Origin: a virus
Virus record (IMG/VR): IMGVR_UViG_3300050120_000255
Span: 14,491 to 78,490 of that record
Direction: 5' to 3' (one strand)
Length of the DNA: 64,000 nucleotides
This document shows, piece by piece, positions 3,964 through 61,518 of the stretch (position 1 is the stretch's first letter; the number at the start of each line of letters is the position of its first letter). Below the pieces are notes generated by a model that worked only from the letters and a program-made list of their open reading frames with translations, did not search any database and was not told where the DNA came from. Made by a program: the position numbers and the translations under genes.

Positions 3964-3981
3964 TAAAACGTCTCCAAAAAA

Positions 3982-4260: not shown

Positions 4261-4304
4261 ATCGAATCTTTCCGGCGGGCGCCGATGAGTGGACTGGTCG
4301 GGCG

Positions 4305-4609: not shown

Positions 4610-4938
4610 TACAGCGGGTTCGGGATGCCGCCGAGCTTCGTGCAATCGGCCGCGGAAGCTGCGTAGACGTGACCGGCAAGAACTTGAATGGCCACATCGC
4701 CGGAGGCTTGATCGTCGACGTAGGCGGCTACGTTGGCGGTGTCGCAAGCGACGGTCATTCCCAGCTTCTCGGCATCTTGAATGAGCTTCGCAAGAGCCGC
4801 CGAATTCAGACCACTGATGACAGTGGTCAGACCGGCGTCGATGCCCGTGACAACCGAGTCGAACGAACAGGCGCCGAGACCAATGGCCAGGGCACACGCG
4901 CAGGTGAGAGCGGTAAATTTCTTGAGGTCAAAACGCAT
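4609..4938 (-). CDS. lipoprotein (spanin-like candidate)
   Basis: Lipobox LGAC after a basic/hydrophobic leader; GGAG RBS; lysis-region context. Confidence 0.65.
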   Translation of the reverse strand: MRFDLKKFTALTCACALAIGLGACSFDSVVTGIDAGLTTVISGLNSAALAKLIQDAEKLGMTVACDTANVAAYVDDQASGDVAIQVLAGHVYAASAADCTKLGGIPNPL

Positions 4939-4947
4939 TTTTGTCTC

Positions 4948-5490: not shown

Positions 5491-5495
5491 TGCGC

Positions 5496-5633
5496 TTAGC
5501 AGTCGCCCGTTTGCTGACAGGAATGTGTGGCGCCCTCGATCACGACGTCGGCAAGATTAAGGATGCCCGACCTACAGCCGGCCATGCTGAGACCAAGGCC
5601 GATTATGAGGATCGCGATTGCGATTTTCTTCAT
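5496..5633 (-). CDS. 45-aa lipoprotein
   Basis: MKKIAIAILIIGLGLSMAGC lipobox; TGATG overlap. Confidence 0.6.
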   Translation of the reverse strand: MKKIAIAILIIGLGLSMAGCRSGILNLADVVIEGATHSCQQTGDC

Positions 5634-6106
5634 CACAGCCCAAAGATTCCCTTCTGCGTGAAGTTGCCGTTCGCATCGAGTTGATGGGACGGATCGGTCG
5701 CCCAGGATTCGGAGATGAGGCCTCCCTTTCCGTCCGGCTTGAGCGTCGATACCCAAGTGACAAGTGTCGGGAGGACCACGGCCAAAACATCGCTGACCAC
5801 TACAACCGCTTCCTCGGCGGCCGCGGCCGGCGGGTAGACGACGGCGATGGCTTTGAGGAGGCTCTCGATGATTGGAGCCCCGGCGGCGAGTTCAGCCTGA
5901 AGGTCCTTCGATTTCCATGCGGCTTCGAGCGCCGCGAAGTCCGAACTGATAGGCTTCAACGCGGTGACGACGTTGGTCACATCCGCGACGGTGGTCTTAA
6001 CCACAGCCGGAATGGCGGCGGCTTCAGTCTCGACGGCCGAAACTGTTGCCGCGATGGTCGTGGCCGCAGGCTTGAGCCACCCGATGATTGAGCCGAGCCA
6101 GCTCAT
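5633..6106 (-). CDS. Ala/Val-rich hypothetical protein
   Basis: Start at ATG 6106 (MSWLGSIIGW), ATGA-coupled. Confidence 0.6.
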   Translation of the reverse strand: MSWLGSIIGWLKPAATTIAATVSAVETEAAAIPAVVKTTVADVTNVVTALKPISSDFAALEAAWKSKDLQAELAAGAPIIESLLKAIAVVYPPAAAAEEAVVVVSDVLAVVLPTLVTWVSTLKPDGKGGLISESWATDPSHQLDANGNFTQKGIFGL

Positions 6107-6327
6107 TTGCCAACGTTCGGAAGAGCAGCCGTGCCGGTCTTGTCGCCATCTTTGGCGAGGAGCCCGACGATGCCAAACAGGATGAACCCGAGGTCGACGT
6201 GCCAATTCGGAGAGAGCTGGCGGTTCACCGCATAAGCCAGCAAATCCGCAACACCCGCAAGAATGCCGGTGCCGCCGAAGAGCGACGTCTGCGAGTTGCG
6301 TTTGATGTTATCCCATACGTTGGTCAT
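6103..6327 (-). CDS. putative holin (2 TM, 74 aa)
   Basis: Two hydrophobic segments and a charged C-tail (GLLAKDGDK); two genes downstream of the endolysin. Confidence 0.55.
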   Translation of the reverse strand: MTNVWDNIKRNSQTSLFGGTGILAGVADLLAYAVNRQLSPNWHVDLGFILFGIVGLLAKDGDKTGTAALPNVGK

Positions 6328-6328
6328 T

Positions 6329-6529
6329 TCAGATCCGTTTCTCGAAAATTTCTGCAAGAATAAAAGGGGCGAAAACCAAAACAGCGGAGACGATCGTGCA
6401 AACGACAACGGCAATACCGAAGCCCGTTCCAACGCGCCCTCGGGGAAGTGCGCCGGCTAAAAGAAAGCAGCCCATTCCGATGACGCCGATGAGCAGCGCG
6501 CCCGCTATTGGCCCGGGGTAGATGCTCAA
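6329..6529 (-). CDS. small 2-TM membrane protein
   Basis: TTG start overlapping the endolysin stop; two hydrophobic segments. Confidence 0.5.
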   Translation of the reverse strand: MSIYPGPIAGALLIGVIGMGCFLLAGALPRGRVGTGFGIAVVVCTIVSAVLVFAPFILAEIFEKRI

Positions 6530-7032
6530 CTTACCCTCGCGTATTGAAAGTGCATTCCATCCGGTCGCCCGTGCCAACGGCCGCCCCAAGTCCAACCCTC
6601 GGCTTCGAAGGTCTTCACGACGATCGAGTCTTCAGTGAAGCTGTGCTCATGGCCACCCGGCGCGGCGCCGAGTGGATTTTCAGGGGCATCGAAATCAACG
6701 GCGAGGCCGTAGGCGTGCATCGACACAGTCTTCATGCCACGCATCGAACGAACGACCCACGAACCGGAGAAGAGATCGGCGTGTGTCGCCCTGAGCTTTC
6801 CGAGATCTTGGTCGCAGGCCTTCCAGATACTCTTCAGGACGCGATCAAATGAATCAGCGCAAACCTTGTTGAGCGAGATCGACTTGATCGGGATCTCGCC
6901 CATAAACATCGGAAAAGGCGGCGGAATGCGCATGATATTGCGCACGGCAAACCCGGCCGAAGTCGGGTTGCCGAACAGCTCCGCGCAATCACGCTGCAAA
7001 GGGGTCTTTGCCGATGGGATTGAAGCTGACAA
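6526..7032 (-). CDS. endolysin, M15-family Zn peptidase
   Basis: SMHAYGLAVD (SxHxxGxAxD), WGGRW, DGMHFQ. Confidence 0.9.
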   Translation of the reverse strand: MSASIPSAKTPLQRDCAELFGNPTSAGFAVRNIMRIPPPFPMFMGEIPIKSISLNKVCADSFDRVLKSIWKACDQDLGKLRATHADLFSGSWVVRSMRGMKTVSMHAYGLAVDFDAPENPLGAAPGGHEHSFTEDSIVVKTFEAEGWTWGGRWHGRPDGMHFQYARVS

Positions 7033-7092
7033 CGCCGCGCCTTCTATTCGATTAATTCAACGGTCTATCCATACATCGAATAGATAGGAGCG

Positions 7093-7707
7093 TCAAGAAG
7101 GCGGAATCCCTCCCCACGGGGGAAGCGGATCGCTGACCTTGCCGAAGGTGATGGACCGGCAGGTTTGCGGCAGCCAAGTGCCAGAGAACCAATCGAAGCC
7201 GACGAAGCCGAGCCCGAGCACCATGTAATAGCGAACGGGATTGCTAAAGTCGGCCTTCCCGATCGCGCTCCACGATTGGAGGTTCAGAATCCGCAGAGCC
7301 GGCGTCGTTCCCCTGCCCGGCAGGTCCAAGTCGACAATCGCATCGAAATAGAGGAGCTGATTGCCCGTGCTCCATACGGTCTGGATCAGAGATTCTATCT
7401 CGCAGGGCGCGGAGATCACGTCTCCGAGGCTCTGCGAAGTGCTGCCCCATTGAATCTCCTTTCCTGGAGTCATCCGTGTCACCCTCCCGTCTGGATAGAC
7501 GTCAGCGACCTCGAGAATCCCCTGGCTCGTGAAGGCATACAGCCATGAGTCGTTCAAAACTCGATCGGCGCCCATAAATTCATCCATACGGACGACGCCG
7601 GGATAGGTTGGATCGAGCCAATATTTCAACGTGCGGTCCCCGACGACGTTGAATTGCGCGTCGCCGGGAGCCGGGCTGGGCCAATAATCTTGGGTGTTGA
7701 AAGTCAT
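7093..7707 (-). CDS. hypothetical protein (204 aa)
   Basis: Likely start ATG 7707 (MTFNTQDYW), TGATG-coupled to the RlpA-like gene. Confidence 0.6.
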   Translation of the reverse strand: MTFNTQDYWPSPAPGDAQFNVVGDRTLKYWLDPTYPGVVRMDEFMGADRVLNDSWLYAFTSQGILEVADVYPDGRVTRMTPGKEIQWGSTSQSLGDVISAPCEIESLIQTVWSTGNQLLYFDAIVDLDLPGRGTTPALRILNLQSWSAIGKADFSNPVRYYMVLGLGFVGFDWFSGTWLPQTCRSITFGKVSDPLPPWGGIPPS

Positions 7708-8057
7708 CAATCTATCCTCGTGATGTGAACGGTCGCGACGCCATCTTTGATCATGCCAATGCGTTCCGCCGCGCCGCGGCTCAGGTCCGCGCATCGACTG
7801 GTCCACCTGGCCGGGCCCCAATCGTTGTGAACCACGTCGACGACGCGGCCCCTTAATGAGACCCGGTAGTGATGCCCGAAATCGTAAGAGCGCAGAGCGA
7901 CCGAGAACCGACTTGGATTGAACCGCCGGCCGTCGGCGGTATGTGTGCCACTCTCCCTTCCGTAAAATGACGCCCTGCAGGTTTCGGCGCGAACATTGAT
8001 GACCTGGGCAATTAATAGGGCCGCGCAAATAGATAAAAAAATCCAAAACTTTGTCAG
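7707..8057 (-). CDS. secreted RlpA-like double-psi beta-barrel (lytic transglycosylase-type) protein, CTG start
   Basis: Absent from the ORF track. AGGAGG-7 nt-CTG, then 116 aa: signal peptide followed by CRASFYG...TADGRRFNP...VVHNDWGP...ADLSRGAAERIGM. Confidence 0.8.
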   Translation of the reverse strand: MTKFWIFLSICAALLIAQVINVRAETCRASFYGRESGTHTADGRRFNPSRFSVALRSYDFGHHYRVSLRGRVVDVVHNDWGPARWTSRCADLSRGAAERIGMIKDGVATVHITRID

Positions 8058-9242: not shown

Positions 9243-12200
9243 TCAATATCCTTCCACATCAATATTAAGTCCCGTGCGCGCCACCCCAACGCCTCCGTTG
9301 AGCACTTGCACCTTGACGGATGACAGCGATAGCGCGCTGATCTGAAGCACGTCGCCAGCTTGGTTATTGAAGCTGACGTTGACGTAAGGCAGCGCCGCCG
9401 CGTTCGGGCCGCCGTTGAACGCGCCGGGGACTGATCCGCCGTCCGGTATGAACGTGATCGTCGTCCCTGCCGCTGCGACGCTGATATTTTGGTAATGATC
9501 AATCCGCGCCGGCACCGCGGCTTGAAAGCTGAAATTCACAAGAACCGGAATAACGTTGGTGTTGCTCGAGCTAAATCGAACCCTGAAATTCGCATACTGG
9601 CCTTGATAATTGCCGGGAATGAATTTTTGCCACGGTGCCCATGTAATCCCTCCCGCTCCGTCGGAGATGCCAATCTGAACTTCAATAGAGCACAAGACGT
9701 ATTGGATATTCTTCGCGCCGAAAACGTCAGTTTGCGCGAGAAAATCCGCAATACTGAGAATGTTGTCGTTAGCCCCGATTCCTGTCGCTAGCCAGGTTGC
9801 GTTGAGCGCGAGTACGCCAAAATATCCGAGGTTGACGATCTGACTAAGGGGAATCGTGTATAGGGCTTCCGCCAGAGGCCCCGCAGTCGCCGCGTCAAGC
9901 GCGAGGAATTGGTTCGGCGAAGCTCCGTCGACGACAATATTGCTTTTTGTGCCGGGCCATCCTTCTGCCTGCTGATCGCGTATGACGAGAGAATTGGCGA
10001 TGAGCATATTGCCGGCAACAGACACGGGGGCTGACGGCAGACTCGTCGCGGTCAGACCAACGGCTGGCGAGCAATAAGCAGTCACATAGTAGGTTCCGGC
10101 GCCGAGCAGCAAGAACGGAGGGTGTGCGAGATCGCCGACCGTCTGCGCTCCTCCTGGTGAGGTTCCGCTCGTGACAAAATAGCGGATGTTCGGTCGAAAA
10201 TCTGTCACTTCGTCCCACCACAATTCTTCGAATCCCGCAGAAAACACGGTACGAAGATTTTGAGGCGTCGCGATCTGGGAGAGCAGCGGCGATCCGGTGA
10301 TCTTGTAGTTGTACGCCGGCACGCTGCTCAGTTCTTGACCGCCGCCGCCCCAGAGGTTGAACGAGATGAATTTCATGTAAACCGTAGAGCCGATATCAGT
10401 CGTCTTGTACGGGGTCTTGAAGAGCGACACGTCGGCGCGCGTGAAAGGAACGCCCGCCGGATGAGCACCGATCGGAGATCCGTAGGCGCCACGCAATAGC
10501 GTCGTCAAATTGTATTTGTTGGCCGCCGTGAGGGTCGCCGTCTGAAACGCGATAAACTCTCCATCCAGGTAGCAGATGGTGTCCGCCGCAACCAACGCTG
10601 CAGACGACACAGAGACTAAGCCTCCTAAGCTTTCCGTCAGGTCGACGCCAAGCGTGCTGGTGCCGTCGATGGTCTGCCCCGTGTCGCTTTCAGTAACAGA
10701 TGGAAGCGCGCTGGTTGTGGCGCCCATTCGGGCAACGCCGTTAATCGTTCCGGCGAGGGCGTACGTGATGTCGTCGGAAGAAATCCAAACGTCGCACCCT
10801 CCCCAAACGGTGATGTTCACGCCCGAGACCGCCGCCCACACCTCTAGCCCATTGGCGAGCGTATAGGGCGGTTCAAAGAATATCGGGGGGTTGACCAGGC
10901 CCGGATCAGCATTCGTGTTCGGCGGGGGCGCCATCGCAGCCTGCGCACCATAGTTCGGCGCACCCAGCGTTCCGAACACTTCATCCGCGATAAAGCTGAG
11001 CGACCCATCCTGATTTTCGGTGATTTCAGTGATGCGCACCGCTTGGCGGAACATTCCCAATTGGGGATCGGTCAGCGTGACGATATCCATCGGGTCAAGC
11101 AGGACCGCCCAGGCGCCAAGGGTAAAGCCGTAGGTGCAAGCAATCTGCGCGCGATGAAGCTGCAAGCCAAGAGACTGCGCCGCCGCCGACTGGATGCAGA
11201 ACATATCGAGCTGCTGCATGTCACTCGGACGGAAGACATTATAGGCGGCGATCGACCCCTCATCCCGGATCTCGACCGGCACAGACGCGTAGTATAGCCC
11301 GCGCTCCTGGTATGACCCGACCATCGAATTGATCATTTGCGAACGCGGCTTGCGGCTGATTGAAATAGGGGACTTACCCGCTGAATCGCCGGTGGATAGC
11401 GAACTTTGATCGGGCATTAGATCATCGTCCGTCAGATCATAAATCGGACTCAAAGAAACGACATGCGTTCCAAAGGCCGAAGTAACCGTTTGATCGGTGT
11501 ACGGCACCAATTTTAGAACGCCAGAAGACCAAACGAACTCACTATTTGAGGCATGAGTTATTTTAATCAAAAATTGCTGCGCAGATGTTTGCGCAGTCAA
11601 TGACACTGACATGAAAAGTCCAAGCGCCCGGCAATACATCCGGTAGTCGCTCAGATCTCCCAAGATATTGATTGGGAAAAGCGGCACGCCATATTCAACA
11701 TTCGTCAGGAAATCGAATATGATGTCCGCAGGGTTCGCGTCGACGATGCCGGCGAAGCCGCCGCTTATCGGCGAGACTATCTCCGCGCTGATGTTGGTCA
11801 GCGATGACGACTGTCCGAGATTGAGGTTCGATATGTTTATTGTGGCGTTGTTTCGATAGTTGAGCGACTGGCCCGGCTCCACGGAGTCCATATATCCCCA
11901 TGTCCCCTGGACACTCGAGCCATTGAAGCTGGTGATCGAACCCGGAATCATCCCGTTGCTGAAATAGTACGGGAAGAACTGCTGATACTGCCCGTAATAG
12001 ATGCTCGGGATGCTGTTTATGGGCCCTTCGCAGAACGAAAAGATGACCGAAACGTAATAGGTAAAGGTGCTTCCCTGGCCGCCCTTTCCGCCGCCGCCCC
12101 CACCACCACCTTTTCCTCCGCCCGATCCGCCGCTATTGCTGGTCGTGTAGTGAAAAAATCCATACCAGATGACGTTGCCCGAAACGCGCTGTTGCCCGTA

Positions 12201-22317: not shown

Positions 22318-23838
22318 TTATCCGTTGGTGATATTCGAGATGACGGCCATGCTCGGCGGGAAGAAGTGTTGGAGCACTTCGTCGGCATAGACGCCGTATT
22401 CGTATTTGCGCGAGCGGAGCGGCCATTCGATCTGGAAATAATCTTGACGAGTCCGGATCTGCATCACGTTGCCGACGCCGGAAAGCGGGTACGGGATCGA
22501 CACCGAAGTGAAGAGGACCGTGCCGGCTGGCATATTCGGATGGACTTTGATGTCCACGACCGAACCACCCTGCATCGAGAACCGGTTCAGGTAGGTGCGG
22601 ACCATGATGCCGCCGCCGATATTGGCCTGCTCCGTGTTGAAGACGAAGCGCTGCGCCGAAGACTGGCCACCTTGAAGGATCTTCTTCGAGATGTTCAAAG
22701 CTTCCTGCGAGCTGACCCACATCGTATCCGGGCCGAGCTTAAAGCCATCCCACATCGCCTTCAGAACGATGTCGATTTCGACGATGCCGCCGGAACCGTC
22801 AGCGGTCAGCGGAGTGCCGATGCCGGCGGCGCCCGTTGGCATCTGGTAGATGGTCGCGCCCGATCCGGGAGCGAAAGCTTGGGTCAGAAGACCGTCGAAC
22901 GACAGTGAATTGGTGCTGGCGTCGGCGGAGAACTGAGCTTCGGAGGCGAGGACGCCCGTGGTGCCGGTGGACGTTCCCGCCGCAGTCGTGATCAACACGC
23001 TGTTGATGGTTGTAATCGCTCCGAGGCGCTCGTTGCCGACGGTGCCCCAGAACCAGGCATAGCCGATCGCGTTTGCTTTGGCGTTGGTCGTCGCGAGGAC
23101 GCTGTTTGTCGCGCCAGCGCCGGTCGAGACCGAGGCCGCGGTGGACTTGGCGCTTGATCCGCCACCGAACGCGTCGGAGGACCCATCAACGTTGGTCCGG
23201 CTAACCCGGCCTTGAATACCCGCCGCGAGCGAACCGTTGAGGAAGCCATCCAAGGTCAGGGCGACAACGATGACGCTAACGACCTGAGTCGCAGCGATCG
23301 CGCCGCCGGTGAGGGCGGTGGAAACGACCGGAGTCGAAGGGGCGCCAAGAGCCTGCGAGCCGTTGCCGCCGAGGATCATAGCTTCCTCGCCGAGCATCAG
23401 AGATTCGAGACCCGTCTTGGCGCCGATCGCCCGGATGTCATCAAACCCTTGGCCAGCATACTCAGCTTCGAAGTCGACGCTGGTTTCGATGCCGATTCCC
23501 TTATAGGAAGCGGTGTAGTCCTGGGTGCTGACAACCTGCGCAGCGTTACGGTTGCCGCCGGACACGCCGATGCGAATGCCGTTGACGTTGACATTGGTCA
23601 CTGCGCGCCAAGCGGCCTGGATGCCACCCTTGCCGGACACACGGGGGGTCGTGTTGCGCAGCGGGGTCAGAACGGGGTAGAGGAACTTCGCGCCGAGTTC
23701 GAGGTCATAGTAGGTCAGACCCGAAGTAGCGGAGGCGGATTGAACGAAAGACGAGGCTTTGCCGAGTTTCAGATCGGGGGAGGCCTGTGCAGCTTTGATA
23801 GATTTCAGAGCTTCTTGAATATCGGCGCCATCAATCAT
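22318..23838 (-). CDS. major capsid protein
   Basis: YDLE..AK.LYPVLTPLRN..PRV, EWP...RKYEYGVY; strong AAGGAG RBS; follows protease/scaffold. Confidence 0.85.
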   Translation of the reverse strand: MIDGADIQEALKSIKAAQASPDLKLGKASSFVQSASATSGLTYYDLELGAKFLYPVLTPLRNTTPRVSGKGGIQAAWRAVTNVNVNGIRIGVSGGNRNAAQVVSTQDYTASYKGIGIETSVDFEAEYAGQGFDDIRAIGAKTGLESLMLGEEAMILGGNGSQALGAPSTPVVSTALTGGAIAATQVVSVIVVALTLDGFLNGSLAAGIQGRVSRTNVDGSSDAFGGGSSAKSTAASVSTGAGATNSVLATTNAKANAIGYAWFWGTVGNERLGAITTINSVLITTAAGTSTGTTGVLASEAQFSADASTNSLSFDGLLTQAFAPGSGATIYQMPTGAAGIGTPLTADGSGGIVEIDIVLKAMWDGFKLGPDTMWVSSQEALNISKKILQGGQSSAQRFVFNTEQANIGGGIMVRTYLNRFSMQGGSVVDIKVHPNMPAGTVLFTSVSIPYPLSGVGNVMQIRTRQDYFQIEWPLRSRKYEYGVYADEVLQHFFPPSMAVISNITNG

Positions 23839-23876
23839 GATGGATTCTCCTTGAAATGGGATGAGAGGGTTGTTGG

Positions 23877-24023
23877 CCTAGATGCCGTCGCCTGCCCGTC
23901 CCCGGAGCGTCGTCTAGATTGCCTTCCTATTCGATGTGGTGATAGAAGCCAGCCCGTCCCCGGAGGCATTCCGCGAGTTATCAAATTTAGCGAGCTTTAT
24001 ATCCGTCCCCGGATCAGCTCGCT
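23877..24023 (-). ncRNA. structured capsid-gene leader with three CCG-GGGA-CGG hairpins
   Basis: CCGTCCCCGG at 23896, 23954 and 24003 (+ strand), each on top of a different outer stem. Confidence 0.6.
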
Positions 24024-24029
24024 CCGGTA

Positions 24030-25814
24030 TTAGCGATCTTGCCCTTTGATGAAGGGTTTCGGATCGTTGTAAGACTGCTTGAACGCCGCCAGGGCCAAAG
24101 CTTGTGGATTTTCCGCGAGGACCTTCAGCATACGGGTCAAATCGGCGTTCTGGTCGGGCTCGGCCTCGCCGCCTTTATTGACGGCGCCGGCGCGGGCCTG
24201 AATTGGTAGAGGGAGTGGCTGCTCCTCGATATTTTTCACACTCTTGAGTAGATCGAGCATTTGCTCGGACATGGTCTCGAATTTCTTACCGAGAGCCTCA
24301 TTGAGAGCATGGACCTTGCGAAGCTCATCCGAGTCGGTTGCGACCTTGGCAAGCGCCACATCGGCTTCCACCTTGGCCACCTTTTCGAGTTCTACCTTCG
24401 CGGCCTCAGCTTTGAGAACAGCGCGCTTGGCGATCAGCGCGTCAACGAACGGCTGAGGCAGATATTTGCGGACCGCTTCGAATTCGCCTTCCGGCAGCGC
24501 GACGGCGCAAGCCATCCAATCGACAACGAGCATGTCATCAACGTTCTGACCTTGGGTCAGTTCGGCGGTCTCTTCCTGAACCATCAGCACGAGGGTCGCG
24601 CAGAGGTCTTCGAGGTTCGAATGGAGCATTGCCGGGAGCGGCGAGTTGTCGTTTTCCTCCTTGGCCTCCATGTGAACGGCCATCTTCACGTCGAAGATTT
24701 CTTCGATGAGACAGGAAAGCCGCGAGATGGTGCGCATCCCCTTCTCGAGACCGAGCTGAGCGACAAGTGTCTTCTCGCCTTTGGCCGCGGTGAAAGACTT
24801 GAGCAAACCGGTTTCGACGGCCACGACAGCGGCTTCTTCGACAACAGCGGCCGGCGCGGCGCGCTTAGAGACTTCGGCCGCCAACTCCGCGAGAACCGCG
24901 TCGGACGCCGCCGTCTTGGCCGCAACCACCGCCGCTGCATCGAACGCCTCGTTGTGGGCGATCATCTCGGCTTTCTTTTTGAAGAGCGAGCCGTCACGGC
25001 TCGACTTCCAAACCTGTTCGCCGTGCTCGTTTTCGACCGGCGTAGCCGTCTTGACGACTTCGACGGCAGCTTCGATCTCCGCGGCCTTCTCGACCTTGTC
25101 CTCGACGACCACTTCGGCCACCGTCTCGACTTTGGCGACGCCTTCGACGACCAGAGCGGCCTTCTCGATCACCGTGCCGCCGTCGCCCGTTTCGGCCATC
25201 AATTGGTCACGCGCGGCTTCAACGAAGTCGCCCCACCCCTTGGCTCCTGCAGCTTTAGCAAGCTCCTGGGCGCGATCGGCAACTTGGTGACTCGTCGGCA
25301 TTGGGACCTCTTTGGAATGAAATTTGCGCAGCTCGGCGACGCCGTCCGCTTTGATCATGGAAAAAGTTGCATCAGGAAGGCACGGGAGATCCACAAGCGA
25401 AACCTCGCACGGATCGGCGGTGTAGCGCTGCAATCCGGTGTCTTTATCGAGCCAACGCTTCACATATGCGCCGCCTTGACTGAAACCGGTGTAGACGCCC
25501 TCGACCACCTTGTTCCATTCGGCGTCATCAACGACCTTGGCGCAGATCTCGATCTGCTTGGCATCGTCGTTGAACTCGATCATCGTCACTTTGCCGGCAG
25601 CGACATTGCCATGCATCGCCCGGACGTTGCCAAGCGACTTCCCGTCGGTCGACTTGGAAATATCGGACGACCACTTCTCATAGAAGGGCTTCGTCGTGGC
25701 GTAATCGCAGATCTCCCCCGACCGATCCTCCGTTTCCCCGGTCGCGATGCCGTAAACGAGCCTTTTGGCTACGTCGACCTTCGTGATCGGAATGAAAAGT
25801 TTGAGGTCGGCCAT
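24030..25814 (-). CDS. prohead protease-scaffold fusion
   Basis: N-terminal VRAMH...YTGFSQGG...EVSLVD protease motifs; long Ala/Glu-rich helical remainder. Confidence 0.8.
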   Translation of the reverse strand: MADLKLFIPITKVDVAKRLVYGIATGETEDRSGEICDYATTKPFYEKWSSDISKSTDGKSLGNVRAMHGNVAAGKVTMIEFNDDAKQIEICAKVVDDAEWNKVVEGVYTGFSQGGAYVKRWLDKDTGLQRYTADPCEVSLVDLPCLPDATFSMIKADGVAELRKFHSKEVPMPTSHQVADRAQELAKAAGAKGWGDFVEAARDQLMAETGDGGTVIEKAALVVEGVAKVETVAEVVVEDKVEKAAEIEAAVEVVKTATPVENEHGEQVWKSSRDGSLFKKKAEMIAHNEAFDAAAVVAAKTAASDAVLAELAAEVSKRAAPAAVVEEAAVVAVETGLLKSFTAAKGEKTLVAQLGLEKGMRTISRLSCLIEEIFDVKMAVHMEAKEENDNSPLPAMLHSNLEDLCATLVLMVQEETAELTQGQNVDDMLVVDWMACAVALPEGEFEAVRKYLPQPFVDALIAKRAVLKAEAAKVELEKVAKVEADVALAKVATDSDELRKVHALNEALGKKFETMSEQMLDLLKSVKNIEEQPLPLPIQARAGAVNKGGEAEPDQNADLTRMLKVLAENPQALALAAFKQSYNDPKPFIKGQDR

Positions 25815-25817
25815 AAA

Positions 25818-27368
25818 CTACTCTTCCTCTTCGGGCTCATAGCCCTTTCGCGCCGTCATCGACGGCCCGGTCTGAACTTTCGGCGTTGTCGCCGCCGGGG
25901 ACCCCTGTGTTCCCTTCGGAACTCCTATCCCAGGAGCCCCCGGAGGTTTTGGGGGAGAAATCTTCGCCCGAGCCTTCAATCCTTCGATTGTGTTGGCATC
26001 CACGGGAATCATTCCAAGGGCGGTATAAATCATCGGAACGTCGAAGGCGGGGTTATCGATCCTATCTATCCCCACTTCTATTCGTGCTTCGTTTAGACTC
26101 TTTATACCTAATTTCACCTGTCCGTCAAGTATGGTCGCCTTGGCGGACTCGTCGACGCTATCTTCGCGGCCAAAAATGAACTCGACGTCGGGTGCCTCAA
26201 GCTCTGTGTCTATTACATCATCGATTAGTTCCTTGACCCAGGCCATGATCGGCACGAGGCCTTCTTCCTCGGCCGACGCCTTTTGCGTGTCGCCGGACGC
26301 CCGGTTCGTCTGCTTGATGAGGCTGTTCGGTGAAACCGAGAAGGCAAAGCAAACGACGCGCGACAGCCAGTCGTCGAATTCCGCCTTCAGATCCGGTTCT
26401 TTGGTCTGATGGAAGTTGGCGCCGGTCCCGCCCGGCATGAATTTGACCTTCCGGCGTGCGCCCTCGGAGCCGCCGAAGTAGACGTCCCAATATTTCTGAT
26501 AGGCCTTGATTTGGTCAGGCGACCAGGTATCCGGGACGTTGGCGATCGCGTCTGGAATATTTCCTTCCGTGAAATAAGCTGTCGTGAAAGCTTGCCGGCG
26601 CAGCGCCAAGTTGACCGTGGCGATGATCTGCTCGGTCGGGGAATACCCGTAAAACGAATTGGAGCGAACGTTGCGCGGCTTATAGATCAAGTCGCGCACG
26701 GAATAGTCAACCGCTGGGTAGCCCTTGAGGATTTGCTGATAGGCGACTGGATAGATCGTTTTCCCACCCTGCTTATACGGCAGCGGCGTGCGTCCGAAGC
26801 TGTCAATTACCGGATTCAGCGTGGCTCCATCGATCGGATACAACGCTGTCAGCTTTCCGCCGCGATTCCGTTGCTTATAGACCGCTGGCGCGTCGATGAC
26901 GAATAGATCCTCGAGCAGCATCCCGAGCCACTCGGAAAACGTGTGAAAACCGTCCGGCTTCTTAAAGAATTGCGTGACCCGCTGAGTTTGCTCGGAAACA
27001 TCTTTCTTGGTGTGCCGGTTTTTCGGCTGCAGGCTCCAATGGAGGCGCTTGGCCTGATCTTTGCGCGTCTCGATGACGAGGCGCAGCAGATCCCAGTTCT
27101 CCGCCATGGCCCGCAGAGTGTGAAAATCGACGGGCTTATAGACACGGGAAACCGTGTTTAGGTTATATCCGGAAGGATAATCGGTCTGGCGGCTGGCGAC
27201 CCCCGGGGGCGCGATCGGGAAGATCGGCTGAAGTGGTCCGAACCAATCCGCGCCCTCAACAGGCTTTGGAGCCGGGGCGTTCGGATTCCCATACGAAATT
27301 TCAACCTGATAAGCGCTCTGGTTGACGTATGCTCCTGCGCGGCCGCCGCGGGTAGGGGCGTCTGCCAT
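25818..27368 (-). CDS. portal protein
   Basis: EDLFVIDA, YQQILKG, YGYSPTEQ, YFTEGNIP; position. Confidence 0.9.
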   Translation of the reverse strand: MADAPTRGGRAGAYVNQSAYQVEISYGNPNAPAPKPVEGADWFGPLQPIFPIAPPGVASRQTDYPSGYNLNTVSRVYKPVDFHTLRAMAENWDLLRLVIETRKDQAKRLHWSLQPKNRHTKKDVSEQTQRVTQFFKKPDGFHTFSEWLGMLLEDLFVIDAPAVYKQRNRGGKLTALYPIDGATLNPVIDSFGRTPLPYKQGGKTIYPVAYQQILKGYPAVDYSVRDLIYKPRNVRSNSFYGYSPTEQIIATVNLALRRQAFTTAYFTEGNIPDAIANVPDTWSPDQIKAYQKYWDVYFGGSEGARRKVKFMPGGTGANFHQTKEPDLKAEFDDWLSRVVCFAFSVSPNSLIKQTNRASGDTQKASAEEEGLVPIMAWVKELIDDVIDTELEAPDVEFIFGREDSVDESAKATILDGQVKLGIKSLNEARIEVGIDRIDNPAFDVPMIYTALGMIPVDANTIEGLKARAKISPPKPPGAPGIGVPKGTQGSPAATTPKVQTGPSMTARKGYEPEEEE

Positions 27369-27761: not shown

Positions 27762-29222
27762 CTAATTCAGGTAGCGCTCAACCGTATGGACACCATTGTT
27801 CCGATCTTCCTGCTCCGCGGCGAGGCGGCGGTAGAATTCAACCATGCCGGACGTGTCAGCGGTCCCGAGGAGGTCGGTCGCGGCCCAGACATATGCGTCG
27901 GCGTGGTCAGGCGATCCCGCGCCCTTGTAGCCACCCTCTGAGAATGCGCAGAGCTGATCCTCGAGAATCGGAAAATCCCCGACGTGATGGATGCGGCCGG
28001 CAGCGGCGTGGACCGAGATCGGCTCGGCCCGGACGATCTTGCCTCGGGTCGCGGAAACGAGCCTAACGGGAACGTTCGGGTCGACTGCTTGTATGGTGGA
28101 CCGAACCATCTCCCCGCCGAAGTTTGCCTCGGCTATGATCGCGTCGGCGCTGTATTGGTGGTAGAGAGCGACCGCCCTCGTCGCCCATTGCTGCGGGCCG
28201 GCGCGCAGCGATCCGTCCTCAAGCACAAAGGCGTGGCCGATCATATTTTTGGCCATGACGACAATTCCGATTTCGTCCTTTGACGTGTCCTCTTCGTTTC
28301 GGGCGCCCGATGGATCGACCGCGACGACCACGCGCTGGCGATCGGAGATGGGGATCTCGCTCGGCTCGACGCGGTTTTTCGCGATGCTTTCGTAGGTCCA
28401 GAGCGCGCCCTCGACCTCGTCGACGAACACCCCCTCAAAGAAGCGCTTGCGCTGCTTGTCCGGCTGGTAGGCTAAGCTATCCAGAAACTTTTTGCTCAGG
28501 TTGTGAGCGTTATCAACCGGATTGAGGTTCGCATAGACGTATTCGTGCGGATCGCGGAGCTTTTTCTTGCTGACCGGGTCGACCTTTTGAACGAAAAGCT
28601 GGTTGGTCCAATGCGACTTGCCGACGGGGTTCAAATCGACGTAGGCGCGCTGCGGTATGGCATCATGCACCTGCGCCAGGCGGGTCATCGCGACAAGGAA
28701 CGACGCGAACGGGATCTGCGACGCCTCGTTGAGGAAAATCGTTGAAAACTCGGTGCCCAGGATCTTTTCGACGCGTTCTTTGTCGTCGAGGCCACCGATC
28801 CAGATCTGAGAGCCGTTCGGAAGCTGAAAATATCCGTCCTGCCGGGCTTCTTCGAGCTTGAGGCCGGGGAAACAGATCCGAACGACGTTGGGCAGCGTGT
28901 CGAGCGCCAATGAGTGCCGCGCCGCGTTGCCGCGGAACCTCAGCATGGCGTGGCGTGTCCCCGCCGCCATCGCCGCGCGCTTGAGGATGGCCCGAACGAT
29001 CAGAAAGGTCTTGCCGGAGCGCGTCCCGCCGTAGAGGCAGGAATGCCGCGCGACCGGCGCGGCTAGCGCCTCCCACGCCGCGCGCTGCTTCGGGCTGACT
29101 AGGATCTGCTCCGGTTTCAGCTCCGGCTTCCGGCCCTCCCCTATTTCGAGGAGTTGGGCTCGCGTCGCCTTTGGCCCGAATATTGACATTTCCTTCACGG
29201 ACGGGAGGAGATACTCGGACAC
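27762..29222 (-). CDS. terminase large subunit
   Basis: Walker A GGTRSGKT, FLNEASQ, LNP, nuclease VDPS and SPDHADA. Confidence 0.95.
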   Translation of the reverse strand: MSEYLLPSVKEMSIFGPKATRAQLLEIGEGRKPELKPEQILVSPKQRAAWEALAAPVARHSCLYGGTRSGKTFLIVRAILKRAAMAAGTRHAMLRFRGNAARHSLALDTLPNVVRICFPGLKLEEARQDGYFQLPNGSQIWIGGLDDKERVEKILGTEFSTIFLNEASQIPFASFLVAMTRLAQVHDAIPQRAYVDLNPVGKSHWTNQLFVQKVDPVSKKKLRDPHEYVYANLNPVDNAHNLSKKFLDSLAYQPDKQRKRFFEGVFVDEVEGALWTYESIAKNRVEPSEIPISDRQRVVVAVDPSGARNEEDTSKDEIGIVVMAKNMIGHAFVLEDGSLRAGPQQWATRAVALYHQYSADAIIAEANFGGEMVRSTIQAVDPNVPVRLVSATRGKIVRAEPISVHAAAGRIHHVGDFPILEDQLCAFSEGGYKGAGSPDHADAYVWAATDLLGTADTSGMVEFYRRLAAEQEDRNNGVHTVERYLN

Positions 29223-29836
29223 TAGAGACCCTTATCCTCCTCGCCGAAATTCAGCGTAATCGGATCTTGGTTGACCTTCTCGTCGATGCTGAACGCCACG
29301 CGCTCGAGGCCCTGGACCCGTGTGTGGATACGAGAGAGCTTCTCGATGATGTCGGACACCGATTCCTTGTTGTTCATGAACGGCGCCTCTATCTCAGATC
29401 CATCCACGAAGATCTTGATAGGCTTACCGTCCATATAGGCGTCGAGGCGCTCGGTCAGTTTCGAGGTGATGCCGCGCAGGCGCCGGAGGTCTTTTCGATG
29501 TTCTAGAACAACGAGAACCGCCGACTGCGCCATCGCCTGAACCATTCGTTCCTCGTCTTCAAGGAACTTGGTGTTGGAGGGCGCGAGGTTGCGACCTTTG
29601 CCGTCATCATCAGGTTTGTGCTCTTCGGCAAGCCGGCTTTGCAGAGCGATCTTAAAACGGTCTTTGAGATCCCGCTGCCAATTTTCAGACTTGGCGCGCT
29701 TGAGGAGCATCTGCGTCGACATATTGAATTGTTTGGCGAGAGCCGCGTCGGAAATATTCCCGATACGCCATTTAAGCTCTACCGCCTTCCAATCGTACCG
29801 CGGCCGGGTGTCGGGAATTTTTTCAAGCGCCGTCAT
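29222..29836 (-). CDS. terminase small subunit (putative)
   Basis: N-terminal HTH (DW..VE..W..G..S..LA...KRAK.E.W.RDL); directly upstream of TerL. Confidence 0.75.
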   Translation of the reverse strand: MTALEKIPDTRPRYDWKAVELKWRIGNISDAALAKQFNMSTQMLLKRAKSENWQRDLKDRFKIALQSRLAEEHKPDDDGKGRNLAPSNTKFLEDEERMVQAMAQSAVLVVLEHRKDLRRLRGITSKLTERLDAYMDGKPIKIFVDGSEIEAPFMNNKESVSDIIEKLSRIHTRVQGLERVAFSIDEKVNQDPITLNFGEEDKGL

Positions 29837-30180
29837 GAATCCAATCCTACGAAAAATACACATCTCGCGCCCGAGGGGCCGCTGTCGAATACCCGCATTT
29901 TAACGCGGTCAGCGGAGATCATCGGCCAGACCGGGGCGTGAACGGTTTGGGGAATTCCCCGCTGTTTGATCAGGCGTTGCGATTGGATCTCGGCCATGGC
30001 CTTACTTTCAGCGTCAGAGACGTGGACCGCCCACTGCAACTCCTCGATCGCCTGGTCGCGATAGATGTGACCGTGCTCACCAGCCATTGAGGGTAGAGTG
30101 AAGGTCTTCTGCACCATTACGAAAGGCCAGCTCGATCCGACGGCGCGGTCCTCGTCCTGCTTCGAATTCTTCCGGCTCAT
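29833..30180 (-). CDS. hypothetical protein
   Basis: ATGA-coupled on both sides. Confidence 0.6.
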   Translation of the reverse strand: MSRKNSKQDEDRAVGSSWPFVMVQKTFTLPSMAGEHGHIYRDQAIEELQWAVHVSDAESKAMAEIQSQRLIKQRGIPQTVHAPVWPMISADRVKMRVFDSGPSGARCVFFVGLDS

Positions 30181-30653: not shown

Positions 30654-30682
30654 CGTATAGAAGATGATCTATTCGATGTCAA
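30654..30682 (-). promoter_or_regulatory. sigma70-like promoter overlapped by the 19-bp palindrome
   Basis: TTGACA-17-TATACG; palindrome at 30669-30687. Confidence 0.6.
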
Positions 30683-30841
30683 GATAGATAGAAAGCGGCG
30701 TTTAATTTATCCACTCAGGAAAACGCCGAAAGACTGAGGCAACTCCCTGTAGCCGGAGGGAAAGGACAAAACCTTCACGGCAGGGATGGACGCCATTTCT
30801 CGGGCTTGGGCTAAATGAGCATGGCACCGAGGCGTGTCCAT

Positions 30842-30870
30842 TTTGTAACAGTGATCTATCACTATGTCAA
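30842..30870 (-). promoter_or_regulatory. sigma70-like promoter overlapped by the 19-bp palindrome
   Basis: TTGACA-17-TACAAA; palindrome at 30856-30874. Confidence 0.55.
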
Positions 30871-30871
30871 A

Positions 30872-30910
30872 TAGACGAAAGGGCCCGGATTTCTCCGAGC
30901 CCTCCTGTCG
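30872..30910 (-). terminator. putative intrinsic terminator
   Basis: AGGGCTCGGA-GAAA-TCCGGGCCCT followed by TTCGTCTATTT. Confidence 0.45.
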
Positions 30911-30983
30911 TGGCCTACTGACCAATCATCGCCGCTCTTCCCTTTCGGGCGCTTTCAAGCGTGTTGGGATTTCGCCACGGCAT

Positions 30984-31498: not shown

Positions 31499-31729
31499 TT
31501 ACGCGGTGCCGGGGGAAGCCTCGGCGTGGCAAAGCATATGGAACGCGACGGCCCACATAGCGTTGAGTACCTTCATCGTCTCGGTCGAGAAACCCCGCAG
31601 GATTGCATCCCCGGCAGCCTCATCAACTTGACGAGCGGCTGCCGACATGGCCTGGGAGCGCTCTTGGTTGCCGAGCTTCCATTGCGCGTCAGCAGCCCTC
31701 CGCAGCTTCCCCGCTATGTCAGTGGTCAT
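31499..31729 (-). CDS. hypothetical protein
   Basis: GAGG RBS; overlaps the upstream gene end. Confidence 0.55.
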   Translation of the reverse strand: MTTDIAGKLRRAADAQWKLGNQERSQAMSAAARQVDEAAGDAILRGFSTETMKVLNAMWAVAFHMLCHAEASPGTA

Positions 31730-32129
31730 AGAGGACCTCGCGCCAATGGAGGACCGAGCCACCGTCTGTCTTCGTCACGGCGCCGTCGGCAGGAACATGG
31801 GCTTTGTTCCACAACGAGAAGAACAGTGGCGGCGCTGGCTTGGCGAAGTCCTCGTCTTCTTCCTGTTGAACGAATTCCTCGTCGACGTCCTCATGAATCC
31901 ACTCAACCAATCGATCGCGATTCTGGGAACGCCCTGAGATGTCGTATTCGAGGACCTGGGCGACCCAATCGATGCCTTCGCGAAGGATGAGGACGCGCAG
32001 CGGTCCGGAGATCGGCGGCCTTGTCGAGTTCGCCGCGGGTGGCGGGGCGTAGTTGCCACAGGTCTTAGCGAGCGGTTGAAGAAGGGACATACGCACCAGC
32101 TCGCTCGGGTACTGATTGACTTCGGTCAT
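31719..32129 (-). CDS. hypothetical protein
   Basis: TGATG-coupled to the last wHTH paralog. Confidence 0.5.
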   Translation of the reverse strand: MTEVNQYPSELVRMSLLQPLAKTCGNYAPPPAANSTRPPISGPLRVLILREGIDWVAQVLEYDISGRSQNRDRLVEWIHEDVDEEFVQQEEDEDFAKPAPPLFFSLWNKAHVPADGAVTKTDGGSVLHWREVLYDH

Positions 32130-32362
32130 CAAATTGATTTTCCTTTCCGCGGGCTCTCCGCCCAAACAGTTTGAAGACTTGCAAGACGGATCTCTCCCGC
32201 GGCGCGGCGCTTGCGGATGATCGCGACGGCCGAGACGTGCGCTTCGAGATCAGTGGCGCCGTGCAGCTTCGCGACCGACTTGAGGCCATCGCCCGTGAAC
32301 GGACTCTGCCGCATCAGCGCGGCGACGTGCTGCTCGAAGGCGGAGCGGTTGAAGGCGCTCAT
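32129..32362 (-). CDS. winged-helix-like paralog 7
   Basis: FEQHVAALMRQSPF...IIRKRRAAGEI...VW; ATGA-coupled. Confidence 0.65.
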   Translation of the reverse strand: MSAFNRSAFEQHVAALMRQSPFTGDGLKSVAKLHGATDLEAHVSAVAIIRKRRAAGEIRLASLQTVWAESPRKGKSI

Positions 32363-32571
32363 GTCGTGAACCACCGCTTCAATCCTCGGTCGTAAACAGC
32401 CTCGTCGGCGCGGCGCATCCGTTGCATGAGGGCGCTGGCGACTGCCCGCGCGTTCTGCGCGTCGCATCCGTACCGGATCGCGATGGCCGCGATGTCATCG
32501 ATCAGAAGAGCCCAGCCGTACAGCCGGACCCGCACATCCTGGCGAAACTGGATTTGGTTGAAGGCGCTCAC
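32359..32571 (-). CDS. winged-helix-like paralog 6
   Basis: FRQDVRVRL...LMQRMRRADEAVY...RW; GTGA-coupled. Confidence 0.65.
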   Translation of the reverse strand: MSAFNQIQFRQDVRVRLYGWALLIDDIAAIAIRYGCDAQNARAVASALMQRMRRADEAVYDRGLKRWFTT

Positions 32572-32786
32572 TTCGACACCTCCTGCCACGCATGAACCGT
32601 GGGACAATATTTGACCTCCCCAGCCAGGCGACGGATGGAGAGATAGTTGTCGGCGGCCTTTGCCAGTAGCCAATCAGGGCAGCCGAAATTTCCAGCAATC
32701 CCCATTATCTCAGACCGAGTGAATGATCCGTCGGCGGTGCGCTTGCGCGCGGCCGCCTCGAATCCGAGCCTGTCGGACGAGGTCAT
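32568..32786 (-). CDS. winged-helix-like paralog 5
   Basis: FEAAARKRTADGSF...YLSIRRLAGEVKY...AW. Confidence 0.65.
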   Translation of the reverse strand: MTSSDRLGFEAAARKRTADGSFTRSEIMGIAGNFGCPDWLLAKAADNYLSIRRLAGEVKYCPTVHAWQEVSK

Positions 32787-33019
32787 CACTTGGCGACCTC
32801 GAACCACATTGTTGCGCGGCCGGACCGCTCGTGAAAAACCTCGCCGTCCTTGCGGCGCTTTTGCAAGAATCGATCAGCTACCCGATCCGCTCGACTAAAC
32901 GGAAAACCGAACGTTTTGGCGAGCTCCCCCAGTTCTCGTTGCTGGCAGGGTCCGGCACGCAGCGCCTCCCGCGCCGCCTTCTCGAACCCGGCGTTGTCTT
33001 CTTGCAGGGGCGCGCTCAC
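32786..33019 (-). CDS. winged-helix-like paralog 4
   Basis: FEKAAREALRAGP...ADRFLQKRRKDGEVF...MW. Confidence 0.65.
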   Translation of the reverse strand: MSAPLQEDNAGFEKAAREALRAGPCQQRELGELAKTFGFPFSRADRVADRFLQKRRKDGEVFHERSGRATMWFEVAK

Positions 33020-33270
33020 GAACGAAGATCCAAGGACCAGATGGTCCCTAAATTCATCGTCCGGTACGGCAGCGTCAGTTTGCCTGCCTTGCGCAGCTTT
33101 CGGATCAGCCGGCGGACCGCGGCGCGCGGCGAGAAGCCGACATCATATTTGCGCGCCATGTAGACTAGGGCTTTGGTGGGGCAGGTCCATTCGCCGAGGC
33201 GGTGGATTGCGGCAGCTTCGAACGCCTCGACGCCGCCGATTTCGATGTCAGGCGTCAGGGCGGCGCTCAT
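33016..33270 (-). CDS. winged-helix-like paralog 3
   Basis: FEAAAIHRL...LIRKLRKAGKL...IW. Confidence 0.65.
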   Translation of the reverse strand: MSAALTPDIEIGGVEAFEAAAIHRLGEWTCPTKALVYMARKYDVGFSPRAAVRRLIRKLRKAGKLTLPYRTMNLGTIWSLDLRS

Positions 33271-33539
33271 GATCCGCGTCTCCAAAACCGGAGAAGTCGG
33301 CCCGTCCGGCGGAACATCGTTTTGTTGGACATGCAATCATGGAAGGCGACAAACCGCCCGTCCTTCAGGCCATCAGCAACGAACTTGCGAGCATCAATGA
33401 AGGCTTCCGAGAGGGACCCGGCGTGAAACTGTGTGATGACCGCAATGTCATTCACCTCGAACGGGCTGCTGCGAATGCGGGCCTCTACCAGTGCCTCGGC
33501 GATGATCTGATTATCAGGCGCGGGAGCCGCGGCGCTCAT
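33267..33539 (-). CDS. winged-helix-like paralog 2
   Basis: EALVEARIRSSPF...FVADGLKDGRF...MF. Confidence 0.6.
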   Translation of the reverse strand: MSAAAPAPDNQIIAEALVEARIRSSPFEVNDIAVITQFHAGSLSEAFIDARKFVADGLKDGRFVAFHDCMSNKTMFRRTGRLLRFWRRGS

Positions 33540-33859
33540 AGGAACTTGCCCGCGATGAAGCCGGCAGCGACAGCGAGCGTAAGGAAGACGACGATCTCCC
33601 AAACGACGGTTGACGGCGCCTCGTCATCTGAGCCGGCCTCGAGTTTCTGGTAGAGAACTTCCTCGCCGACGCGCACCGGGATGACAGTGCCGCCCTCAAG
33701 GCCGTGTACAATTTCGGCTTCAGCAGAAATCCGGGCCCCCTGGCCAAAGATCCCCTCGTGCATGAGGAAGGTGGACAGACTTTCGACGCTGAACGGTGCG
33801 CCTTCCAAATATTCCTTGCGGCGCGCGACTTTGGCGTCGTCGGACAGGGTCAGTGCCAT
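33536..33859 (-). CDS. winged-helix-like paralog 1 with C-terminal TM anchor
   Basis: EYLEGAPF...IVHGLEGGTV...LY, then WEIVVFLTLAVAAGFIAGKFL; AAGGAG RBS. Confidence 0.6.
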   Translation of the reverse strand: MALTLSDDAKVARRKEYLEGAPFSVESLSTFLMHEGIFGQGARISAEAEIVHGLEGGTVIPVRVGEEVLYQKLEAGSDDEAPSTVVWEIVVFLTLAVAAGFIAGKFL

Positions 33860-33893
33860 GAAATCGAATCTCCTTTGTGATTTGGTTGCATTG

Positions 33894-33924
33894 CTATCCT
33901 GACGTCTAATAGACTAGGAGTCAA
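33894..33924 (-). promoter_or_regulatory. putative leftward promoter with overlapping 19-bp palindrome
   Basis: TTGACT-17-CAGGAT; palindrome at 33894-33912. Confidence 0.45.
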
Positions 33925-34632
33925 GTGATAGATAGGTCAGAGACCGATCTTTTTTGGGCCGGTTTGGGCCACGATTTAGGGGTGATTTAGGGGCGCTTTT
34001 GTTCGTTAAAAGTGATCAGAAATGAATCGAGGCTGGCTATTTCACCAAAACAGTCCGGGAAATCGGCCTGATCATGTGTAAAATCAACAATTTAGTCCCG
34101 ATTTAGCCCTTAGAGTGACTCGGCCTGTTTGAGGGGCGCCGGCCGCGCGGCGGGACTGGTCGTATCCTGTTGATTTTGCTTCGAAGTCGGTATGCCGGCA
34201 TCGGCCTCGGAGAACTTTTCTGTTAACCCGGATTTGGAGAACTCCGGGGTAAAAAATCCGAGGGGGAGTATCTTATTGAAACTATTTTGTAAAATAGGAT
34301 TGGGATGGCCTAGAATAAAAATCAGGGCCTGTTTGACCGCATTGATCGCTAAGTCATTGGCACTATTTTGTACAATTGGGTTTGGGAGGTCGCGAGGAAA
34401 AATTGGGTAAATAGGGTATCCACGGCGCCCAATCCGATCGATTCAAACGCCTTGCCCTCCTCGAGCCGCGTGTCGCTCGATATCGGCTTGCCTTCATCGA
34501 ACAGGTATATCTATCTATCCTATCACGTCTTTGTGATAACAAACGTGTTCCTAACCATCGAATAGATAGTGACACAATGCGCATAACAAAATACGGTCTA
34601 TCTTGTAGCAACGAACGAAGCGAGCAAAGACA

Positions 34633-61514: not shown

Positions 61515-61518
61515 GCTA

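Follow-up and report, generated by a model that had tools for sequence, protein, structure and literature searches.

Small winged-helix proteins are common in phages. The systems that come closest to the locus reported here are phrog_14380, a family of unknown function in PHROGs v4; the bacterial regulators of the BlaI/MecI and ArsR/SmtB types, which insert helix 3 of the domain into the major groove; the Zalpha domains of ADAR1, E3L, and PKZ; and, for a single gene of the locus, p16.7 of the Bacillus phage phi29, a small early membrane-anchored protein with an N-terminal anchor and a homeodomain-like dimer that binds DNA. The DNA analyzed here (the window) is a stretch of 64,000 nucleotides comprising bases 14491-78490 of the 78,490-bp virus record IMGVR_UViG_3300050120_000255 of IMG/VR, for which the estimated completeness is 81%. 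On the minus strand of the window, seven genes lie back to back (g1 to g7) and encode, when read and translated, proteins of 107, 90, 84, 77, 72, 70, and 77 aa. Six of them, g2 to g7, appear to represent a six-fold tandem expansion, specific to this lineage, within a rare family of basic winged-helix proteins of ~77 aa related to phrog_14380. An earlier account made from the letters alone (the sequence-only reading) had already described seven consecutive coupled genes of 70 to 107 aa, five of them starting with MSA, and our reading of the minus strand agrees with it.

Pairwise BLAST matches among the copies are weak, except between g4 and g5 (37% identity over 70 aa), but the alignments are collinear. 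A hidden Markov model (HMM) built only from ten external relatives scored g4 at 63 bits, g5, g6, and g7 at ~30, g3 at 24, and g2 at 15.5 (E 5e-4), with the best of the 728 other open reading frames (ORFs) of the window at 4.6 bits. That test is partly circular, because the ten external proteins had been found with the array's own profile. Leave-one-out HMMs built from the paralogs only are free of this circularity, and in each of them the left-out copy outscored every other ORF outside the training set, at E values from 3e-13 to 8e-4 (the latter for g3), with g2 at only 0.065. A profile search of the whole 78-kb record returned exactly six places, and here g2 was found at E 1e-22, though the profile includes g2 itself. 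These comparisons show, at the level of sequence, that g2 to g7 share ancestry. The sequence-only reading had made its case depend on significant profile-profile alignments, and the failure to obtain one was confined to g1, the six other copies being recovered in the HMM tests. A tree of 17 family members had no resolution, and a single origin was not rejected (p-AU 0.156, approximately unbiased test). The branches leading to g2, g3, g5, and g6 have lengths of 2.5 to 3.8, compared to a median of 1.4, that is, two to three times the family median.

The junctions between the genes are as regular as their order. Stop and start codons overlap as ATGA at g1/g2, g2/g3, and g6/g7, as GTGA at g3/g4 and g5/g6, and as TGATG at g4/g5 and again at g7/g8, where g8 is the next gene of the chain. 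Five junctions have the sequence RTGAGCGCC in common, and therefore five of the proteins start with MSA; g6 and g7 are in addition identical over the first 15 nt after the first base of the start codon (MSAFN). In every gene, GC1/GC2/GC3 values follow the pattern seen in the terminase and portal genes. Given these stop/start overlaps, g2 to g7 are probably translated as one coupled series. The protein of g8 was not matched to the family by HMM or by profile comparison.

The copy g4 is confidently predicted to be a canonical winged helix. The AlphaFold2 model (mean predicted local distance difference test [pLDDT] score, 91.5) has helix 9-22, strand 25-26, helix 27-36, helix 41-57, and strands 61-66 and 69-74, i.e., the order H1-b1-H2-turn-H3-b2-wing-b3, and the chain ends directly after the wing. 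Alignment of this model with VIA-align gave matches at Z scores of 7.5 to 8.8, with 24 chains at a Z of at least 8, and all of the top matches listed are winged-helix proteins. They include MecI (Z 8.8), the ArsR family members NolR, SmtB, AntR, and CzrA, the regulators Nur, Fur, and PerR, and, further, PadR and MarR proteins, N-terminal domains of ROK proteins, and Zalpha/Zbeta domains (Z 8.1-8.2). All of these neighbors fall within one Z unit, covering 58 to 75 of the 77 residues, mostly at a root mean square deviation (rmsd) of ~2 Å, and Foldseek searches of g4 against PDB and BFVD agree with them. For MecI, NolR/SmtB/CzrA, Fur/Nur/PerR, PadR, MarR, and Zalpha, the superposed length is 60 to 69 residues. 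Since several regulator families and Zalpha lie within one Z unit, the fold is that of a generic bacterial-regulator winged helix and not specifically that of Zalpha. The winged-helix fold proposed for the array is thus borne out for g4 by the model and the structural matches; for g2, g3, and g5 to g7 the same fold would follow by homology. A search of the ESM Atlas by features with g4 gave only matches below 0.9, in uninformative clusters, and a homodimer prediction for g4, made with no controls, scored 0.00 and argues neither for nor against dimerization.

The best structural match is the N-terminal domain of BlaI/MecI (1okr and 1p6r; PF03965), which superposes on g4 at Z 8.8 with an rmsd of 2.1 Å over 65 residues and ranks second in Foldseek. 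The end of helix 3 also shows a motif of the hL+xL+KG+I type, which we take to be common to the BlaI/MecI class. On the other hand, identity in the structural alignment is 6%, and the C-terminal dimerization domain of BlaI/MecI is missing here. No copy in the window matches PF03965, and one external relative reached E 0.08 (13.7 bits, compared to a cutoff of 22.6), so that membership in this family was rejected. The core of the ArsR/SmtB proteins superposes comparably (NolR 4omy, SmtB 1r1t and 8qkf, CzrA 1r1u; Z 8.1-8.6, ~2 Å over 61 to 62 residues), but there was no match to PF01022 (HTH_5) at an E of 1 or below; this likeness is structural only, and the alpha-1/alpha-5 dimerization helices and the metal sites are missing because the whole protein has only 70 to 90 aa.

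At the sequence level, the array belongs to a very rare family. The profile of g2 to g7, searched against 1.84 billion representative proteins, gave 19 matches: the six array proteins, ten external relatives of 72 to 83 aa (E 2e-8 to 9e-4), and three artifacts. The artifacts are two repeat proteins, P0002 (2220 aa) and P0008 (1857 aa), and P0010, which has four helix-turn-helix repeats and an HNH domain and matches only in its generic helix-turn-helix part. The external relatives match phrog_14380 at E 2.4e-9 to 0.06; g4 itself matches at E 0.0024, and the other copies do not match. The link between the array and this PHROG is thus transitive, as it runs through external relatives that were found with the array profile, but by these profile matches the array family appears to correspond to phrog_14380, with gp049 of the Caulobacter phage phiCbK as a member. 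The sequence-only reading knew of no named system like the array, a statement that the existence of this PHROG supersedes. The protein gp049 (YP_006987945.1, hypothetical protein; genome NC_019405.1) scores 47 to 52 bits with the family HMM and shares with the array proteins its basic character, its length of ~77 aa, and the common motif; its gene lies ~2 kb downstream of the phiCbK portal gene. Among isolated phages, the family was found only in phiCbK-like Caulobacter phages, where it is single-copy, in contrast to the six diverged tandem copies of our locus. After gp049 on the phiCbK genome come six small hypothetical genes that overlap (gp050-gp055, the whole at 23490-25483), none of which was matched by the family HMM.

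Other searches had little to add. The phiCbK genome paper (PMC3556154) makes no mention of gp049, and we found no description of the family or of such arrays in the literature. In 80 viral loci that encode a related large terminase (46 to 65% identity), the closest among them, the family was not detected, so that the search for the array and its copy number in other phages, proposed from the sequence, gave a single copy in phiCbK-like phages and no copy among these loci. Homolog searches returned only g4 itself for g4 and, for the family profile, only two relatives already known; isolated phages gave no match to the locus by blastn or to g4 by tblastn, nor was anything found in single-protein scans of viral contigs with the relatives P0014 and P0009. 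Three matches in a metagenome scan were spurious, being partial and lying inside integrase and primase-like ORFs. The remaining external relatives mostly come from contigs of <2 kb, with P0009 on a 59,990-nt contig of the Joint Genome Institute (JGI). Within the searches made here, members of the family are very few, and no second six-fold expansion came up.

Charge and conserved surface give the main clues to what these proteins may do. All six copies are basic, with isoelectric points (pI) of 8.7 to 10.9, as are nine of the ten external relatives (pI 9.5-10.8), and the family has the common motif ADRLIQ-x-RRKAGEI...W. In the ten relatives, residues R46, D49, Q53, R56, and K57 of helix 3, together with G59 and W72, are 90 to 100% conserved; R46, D49, and Q53 are spaced i, i+3, and i+7 and therefore share one face of the helix. 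Among the array copies, g4 is alone in having the full set of five helix-3 residues. The column of D49 reads D/D/V/S/R/R among the copies, and that of Q53 reads Q/S/R/Q/R/A. Most copies retain core positions, namely, F12, P24-F25, A34, G38, R56, G59, and W72, the last being the wing Trp found in nine of ten relatives and five of six copies. The changes in helix 3 and the longer branches of the five other copies suggest that these probably have different targets, or else that constraint on them is relaxed. The pattern fits duplication followed by a change of binding specificity, with relaxed constraint as a possible alternative.

We favor, at roughly an even chance of being right, the reading in which g2 to g7 would be small basic nucleic-acid binders that were multiplied in this lineage and whose recognition helices have diversified. 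As in related winged-helix regulators, helix 3 and the beta wing would be the parts of each protein that bind nucleic acid, which would most likely be DNA; g4 would keep the helix-3 surface of the single-copy relatives, and the other five would probably recognize different targets (neofunctionalization) or be under relaxed constraint. The most economical role for such a set would be as phage regulators of transcription or of DNA architecture. Binding of defined DNA sites would draw indirect support from the basic pI, from the conserved helix-3 face of polar or basic residues, and from the palindrome at the putative promoter of the array. Several points weigh against this reading. Among the paralogs of the array (g2 to g7), only g4 was modeled, with the six paralogs themselves as the input alignment. 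The 77-aa domain has no obvious dimerization element, unlike the MecI, ArsR, and MarR regulators. Proteins and RNA, too, are bound by winged-helix domains, and the Asp that is conserved on the presumed recognition helix is as compatible with protein binding as with DNA binding. There is, moreover, no sequence-level link to a characterized DNA-binding family: no copy or relative scored above threshold in Pfam, NCBIfam, or PADLOC, and the sequence-profile search of PDB gave chance matches only (haemagglutinin and CheA, at E values of at least 0.011). Lastly, an in situ origin of the six copies is neither supported nor rejected by the tree. If the expansion has been read correctly, its intact, coupled genes, with the ancestral surface in only one copy, offer a clean natural case of duplication followed by probable divergence of a binding surface, although the function of the array could be ordinary gene regulation.

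The alternative that survives best, which we nonetheless hold to be unlikely, is that the array serves host takeover or anti-defense, the winged-helix scaffold binding host proteins such as defense sensors or RNA polymerase and being diversified by arms-race duplication, as are many arrays of small early phage genes. The position of the array, first in its operon and near the early/late divergent region, would suit this role, as would the small size and tight coupling of its genes, and surface positions have diverged quickly in five of the six copies, which are on long branches. The same helix, however, is strongly conserved in the single-copy relatives, which would not be expected of an arms-race interface, and the conserved R, D, Q, R, and K belong to the helix through which the structural neighbors touch nucleic acid, in proteins that are basic in all copies and in nearly all relatives. 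The patchy, rare distribution of the family and its absence from the phage closest by terminase are typical of accessory genes and so agree with an anti-defense role; against it, neither the PADLOC models nor any known anti-defense family gave a match.

The gene g1, which precedes the six, differs from them in charge and in having a membrane segment. Its hydrophobic C-terminal segment (residues 85-103, mean Kyte-Doolittle value of 2.36) is the only one among the copies, as the sequence-only reading had it, and its soluble part is acidic (pI 4.5, net charge of -8). No family HMM, external-only or leave-one-out, matched g1, and a homolog search with it found only itself. In hhalign, g1 against the family had a probability of 1 to 2% and a score of 14.4, a score reached by 2.4% of background ORFs and by 2.5% of shuffles; the alignment is nonetheless collinear and, at 64 columns, unusually long. 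The proposal of seven paralogs headed by a membrane-anchored copy is therefore upheld by HMMs for the six basic copies (pI 8.7-10.9) and not for acidic g1 (pI 4.5), for which the hhalign score was nonsignificant. The models nevertheless suggest a winged-helix-like shape for approximately residues 7 to 75 of g1. A single-sequence model from the ESM Atlas (pLDDT 0.62) has as neighbors BlaI, ArsR/MarR, Mnd1/Hop2, DUF4364, and WYL N-terminal winged-helix domains, at template modeling (TM) scores of 0.45 to 0.51. In the AlphaFold2 model made with the family alignment, helices 7-20, 25-34, and 40-55 have pLDDT scores of 85 to 93, with an overall value of 74; the wing is poorly modeled and was wrongly built out of the transmembrane segment, because MAFFT had aligned W87 of g1 with the wing Trp of the family. 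Foldseek matches of this model are weak (E of at least 0.18) and mostly to winged-helix proteins. The array thus has six proven members and a possible seventh, g1, which may be a very diverged copy of the family but which we regard as a separate component of winged-helix-like appearance; DNA binding by g1 itself is unlikely.

The opposite charges of g1 and of g2 to g7, the coupling of g1 to g2 by an ATGA overlap, and the single C-terminal transmembrane helix on a seemingly winged-helix-like shape raise a second alternative, in which acidic g1 would bind one or more of the basic proteins. It would either sequester these or keep them, with whatever DNA they have bound, at the inner membrane, in loose analogy to an anti-sigma factor or to phi29 p16.7. 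We consider such a tethered complex improbable, as g1 has no relatives at all and phiCbK has no detectable g1-like partner, with no family match and no match with a transmembrane tail adjoining gp049. The likeness of g1 to p16.7 consists in a small early phage protein with a single anchor and a helical domain of a nucleic-acid type; g1 differs in that its anchor is C-terminal and its soluble part acidic (pI 4.5) and seemingly winged-helix-like, and no homology between the two is expected.

Equally improbable, to our minds, is that the array consists of redundant or decaying duplicates in which only g4 performs the family function while the others drift under relaxed selection. Six intact frames, with the overlaps at their junctions preserved and with gene-like codon-position GC, are not what decay would leave, since at 20 to 38% identity stops or frameshifts would be expected in unconstrained copies. 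The retention of helix-3 residues in full by g4 alone does suit this alternative, as do the very long branches of g2, g3, g5, and g6 and the bare detectability of g2 by HMM, but it is countered by the conservation of the fold-determining positions F12, the P24-F25 turn, A34, G38, R56, G59, and W72. The array is also letter-identical in contigs of three peat metagenome runs that contain the same DNA, one of which may be the source, with no deletion joints or variants. No RNA data set was among the public runs listed for this DNA.

A Zalpha-like binding of left-handed Z-DNA or Z-RNA, at which the sequence-only reading had hinted, is very improbable: the Zalpha-type structures 4kmf, 1sfu, 1qbj, and 1xmk do appear among the fold matches (Z 8.1-8.2), and the wing Trp is conserved, but dozens of ordinary B-DNA regulators score as high or higher (MecI, 8.8), no PDB Zalpha chain was matched by sequence, and the position six residues before the conserved Gly, equivalent to the key Tyr of helix 3, is Gln in all ten relatives and variable in the array. 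What the array proteins share with Zalpha (ADAR1, E3L, PKZ; 1qbj, 1sfu, 4kmf) is a minimal stand-alone winged helix (62 to 70 aa) with a Trp in the last wing strand, at Z 8.2; the Asn of helix 3 would presumably correspond to Asp, and the wing Pro-Pro is presumably absent here. W72 apart, these residues give no grounds for membership, although the test is a weak one, as the columns were mapped to ADAR1 Zalpha with the KKG turn as the anchor. We found no support for the Zalpha, decoy, or hetero-oligomer readings.

Coordinates of the array and of the features discussed below are collected in Table 1.

Table 1. Array genes, candidate control elements, and packaging genes in coordinates of the window
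Feature	Coordinates	Strand	Description
g1	33536-33859	minus	107 aa, acidic, C-terminal transmembrane helix; family homology falls short of significance
g2	33267-33539	minus	90 aa, basic; most diverged paralog, basic C-terminal extension
g3	33016-33270	minus	84 aa, basic paralog
g4	32786-33019	minus	77 aa, GTG start; most canonical copy
g5	32568-32786	minus	72 aa, paralog; 37% identity to g4 over 70 aa
g6	32359-32571	minus	70 aa, GTG start, paralog
g7	32129-32362	minus	77 aa, paralog
g8	31719-32129	minus	136 aa, acidic; TGATG overlap with g7, no relation to family
Putative ribosome-binding site AGGAG	33874-33870	minus	by eye; follows putative promoter
Putative sigma-70-like promoter	33896-33924	minus	TTGACT 33924-33919, 17-nt spacer, CAGGAT 33901-33896; by eye
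Palindrome CTATCCTGACGTCTAATAG	33894-33912		19 bp; form CTATY-N9-RATAG; overlaps spacer and -10 of putative g1 promoter
Strict palindrome sites	7065, 8069, 20814, 23927, 30669, 30856, 33894, 47468, 55296, 59799, 60318		19 bp each
Small terminase	29222-29863	minus	phrog_1206, E 5e-22
Large terminase	27762-29222	minus	
Portal gene	25818-27368	minus	

The array opens the leftward gene set of this uncultured peat phage, which runs on the minus strand from ~33859 down through the packaging genes to the head, tail, and lysis genes, and lies ~2.3 kb upstream of the small-terminase gene. Upstream of g1 there are ~770 bp without a convincing gene, beyond which the plus-strand genes of the rightward set begin at ~34633; this layout fits the earlier description of the array as the first genes of a leftward transcript. 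That the transcript starts at an operator-overlapped promoter is plausible by eye, as a palindrome 35 nt upstream of the g1 start overlaps the spacer and the -10 hexamer of a promoter-like sequence, but a consensus promoter scan did not call this site (8 of 12 matches). Rfam and ARAGORN found no match in the intergenic region upstream of g1.

The palindrome is one of many. Strict sites of the form CTATY-N9-RATAG number 11 in the window, compared to 0.16 expected, and 16 sites (0.67 expected) are found when up to one mismatch is allowed. All seven strict sites on the leftward side, from 7065 to 33894, are intergenic. Several palindromes overlap or adjoin -35-like TTGAC hexamers; at 30669 and 30856, TTGACA is followed after 17 nt by TATACG or TACAAA. 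These features make the palindrome a candidate operator or promoter element. The sites at 30669 and 30856, each with a good TTGACA-N17 promoter-like sequence, lie in the 330-bp gap between orf190 and orf158 (30654-30983), which suggests that g1 to g8, orf87, and orf190 form a transcription unit of their own ahead of the packaging genes, with the gap as a possible border toward the packaging and late genes. To connect the array proteins with these palindromes is to speculate, and we give little credence to the boldest form of the idea, in which the six copies would read the variable 9-bp cores of the palindromes at the array promoter and before most leftward units, as a combinatorial timing switch with membrane-anchored g1 sequestering them; if true, a single phage would supply a multi-paralog regulator-operator code. 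With its six proteins, one membrane protein, and eleven strict palindromes, the locus makes a defined test set for an uncharacterized PHROG family, of which the model phage phiCbK has a member too.

The region between the divergent gene sets (33860-34630) is gene-poor and lower in GC content (~51%). At 33971-34001 and 34087-34106 it contains iteron-like direct repeats of the GATTTAGGGG type, and at 34275-34322 and 34356-34403 the two copies of a 48-nt direct repeat, which are 73% identical. From these sequence features, the region could be an origin or a regulatory region. Elsewhere in the window, Rfam reports a tRNA at 61484-61551 (41.7 bits, above the gathering threshold), and ARAGORN finds no tRNA in the window.

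The phage closest by terminase, L003 (IMGVR_UViG_3300031251_000100), has a large terminase 65% identical, a portal protein 68% identical, and a small terminase 40% identical to those of our phage, and one small ORF is also shared. Upstream of its terminase genes (positions 1-8000), L003 carries different cargo, including a PhoH-like ATPase and a Dam-like methylase, recognized by eye from ORF translations. As L003 lacks the family and has different genes in this position, the region upstream of the terminase genes appears to be a variable slot. In the first 14.5 kb of the record, outside the window, there are two tyrosine recombinase/integrase genes (PF00589, 41 and 72 bits), at record positions 2738-3310 on the plus strand and 9384-9821 on the minus strand. 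On the strength of these two genes the phage is probably temperate, or alternatively part of the contig may be host or mobile DNA that flanks the phage.

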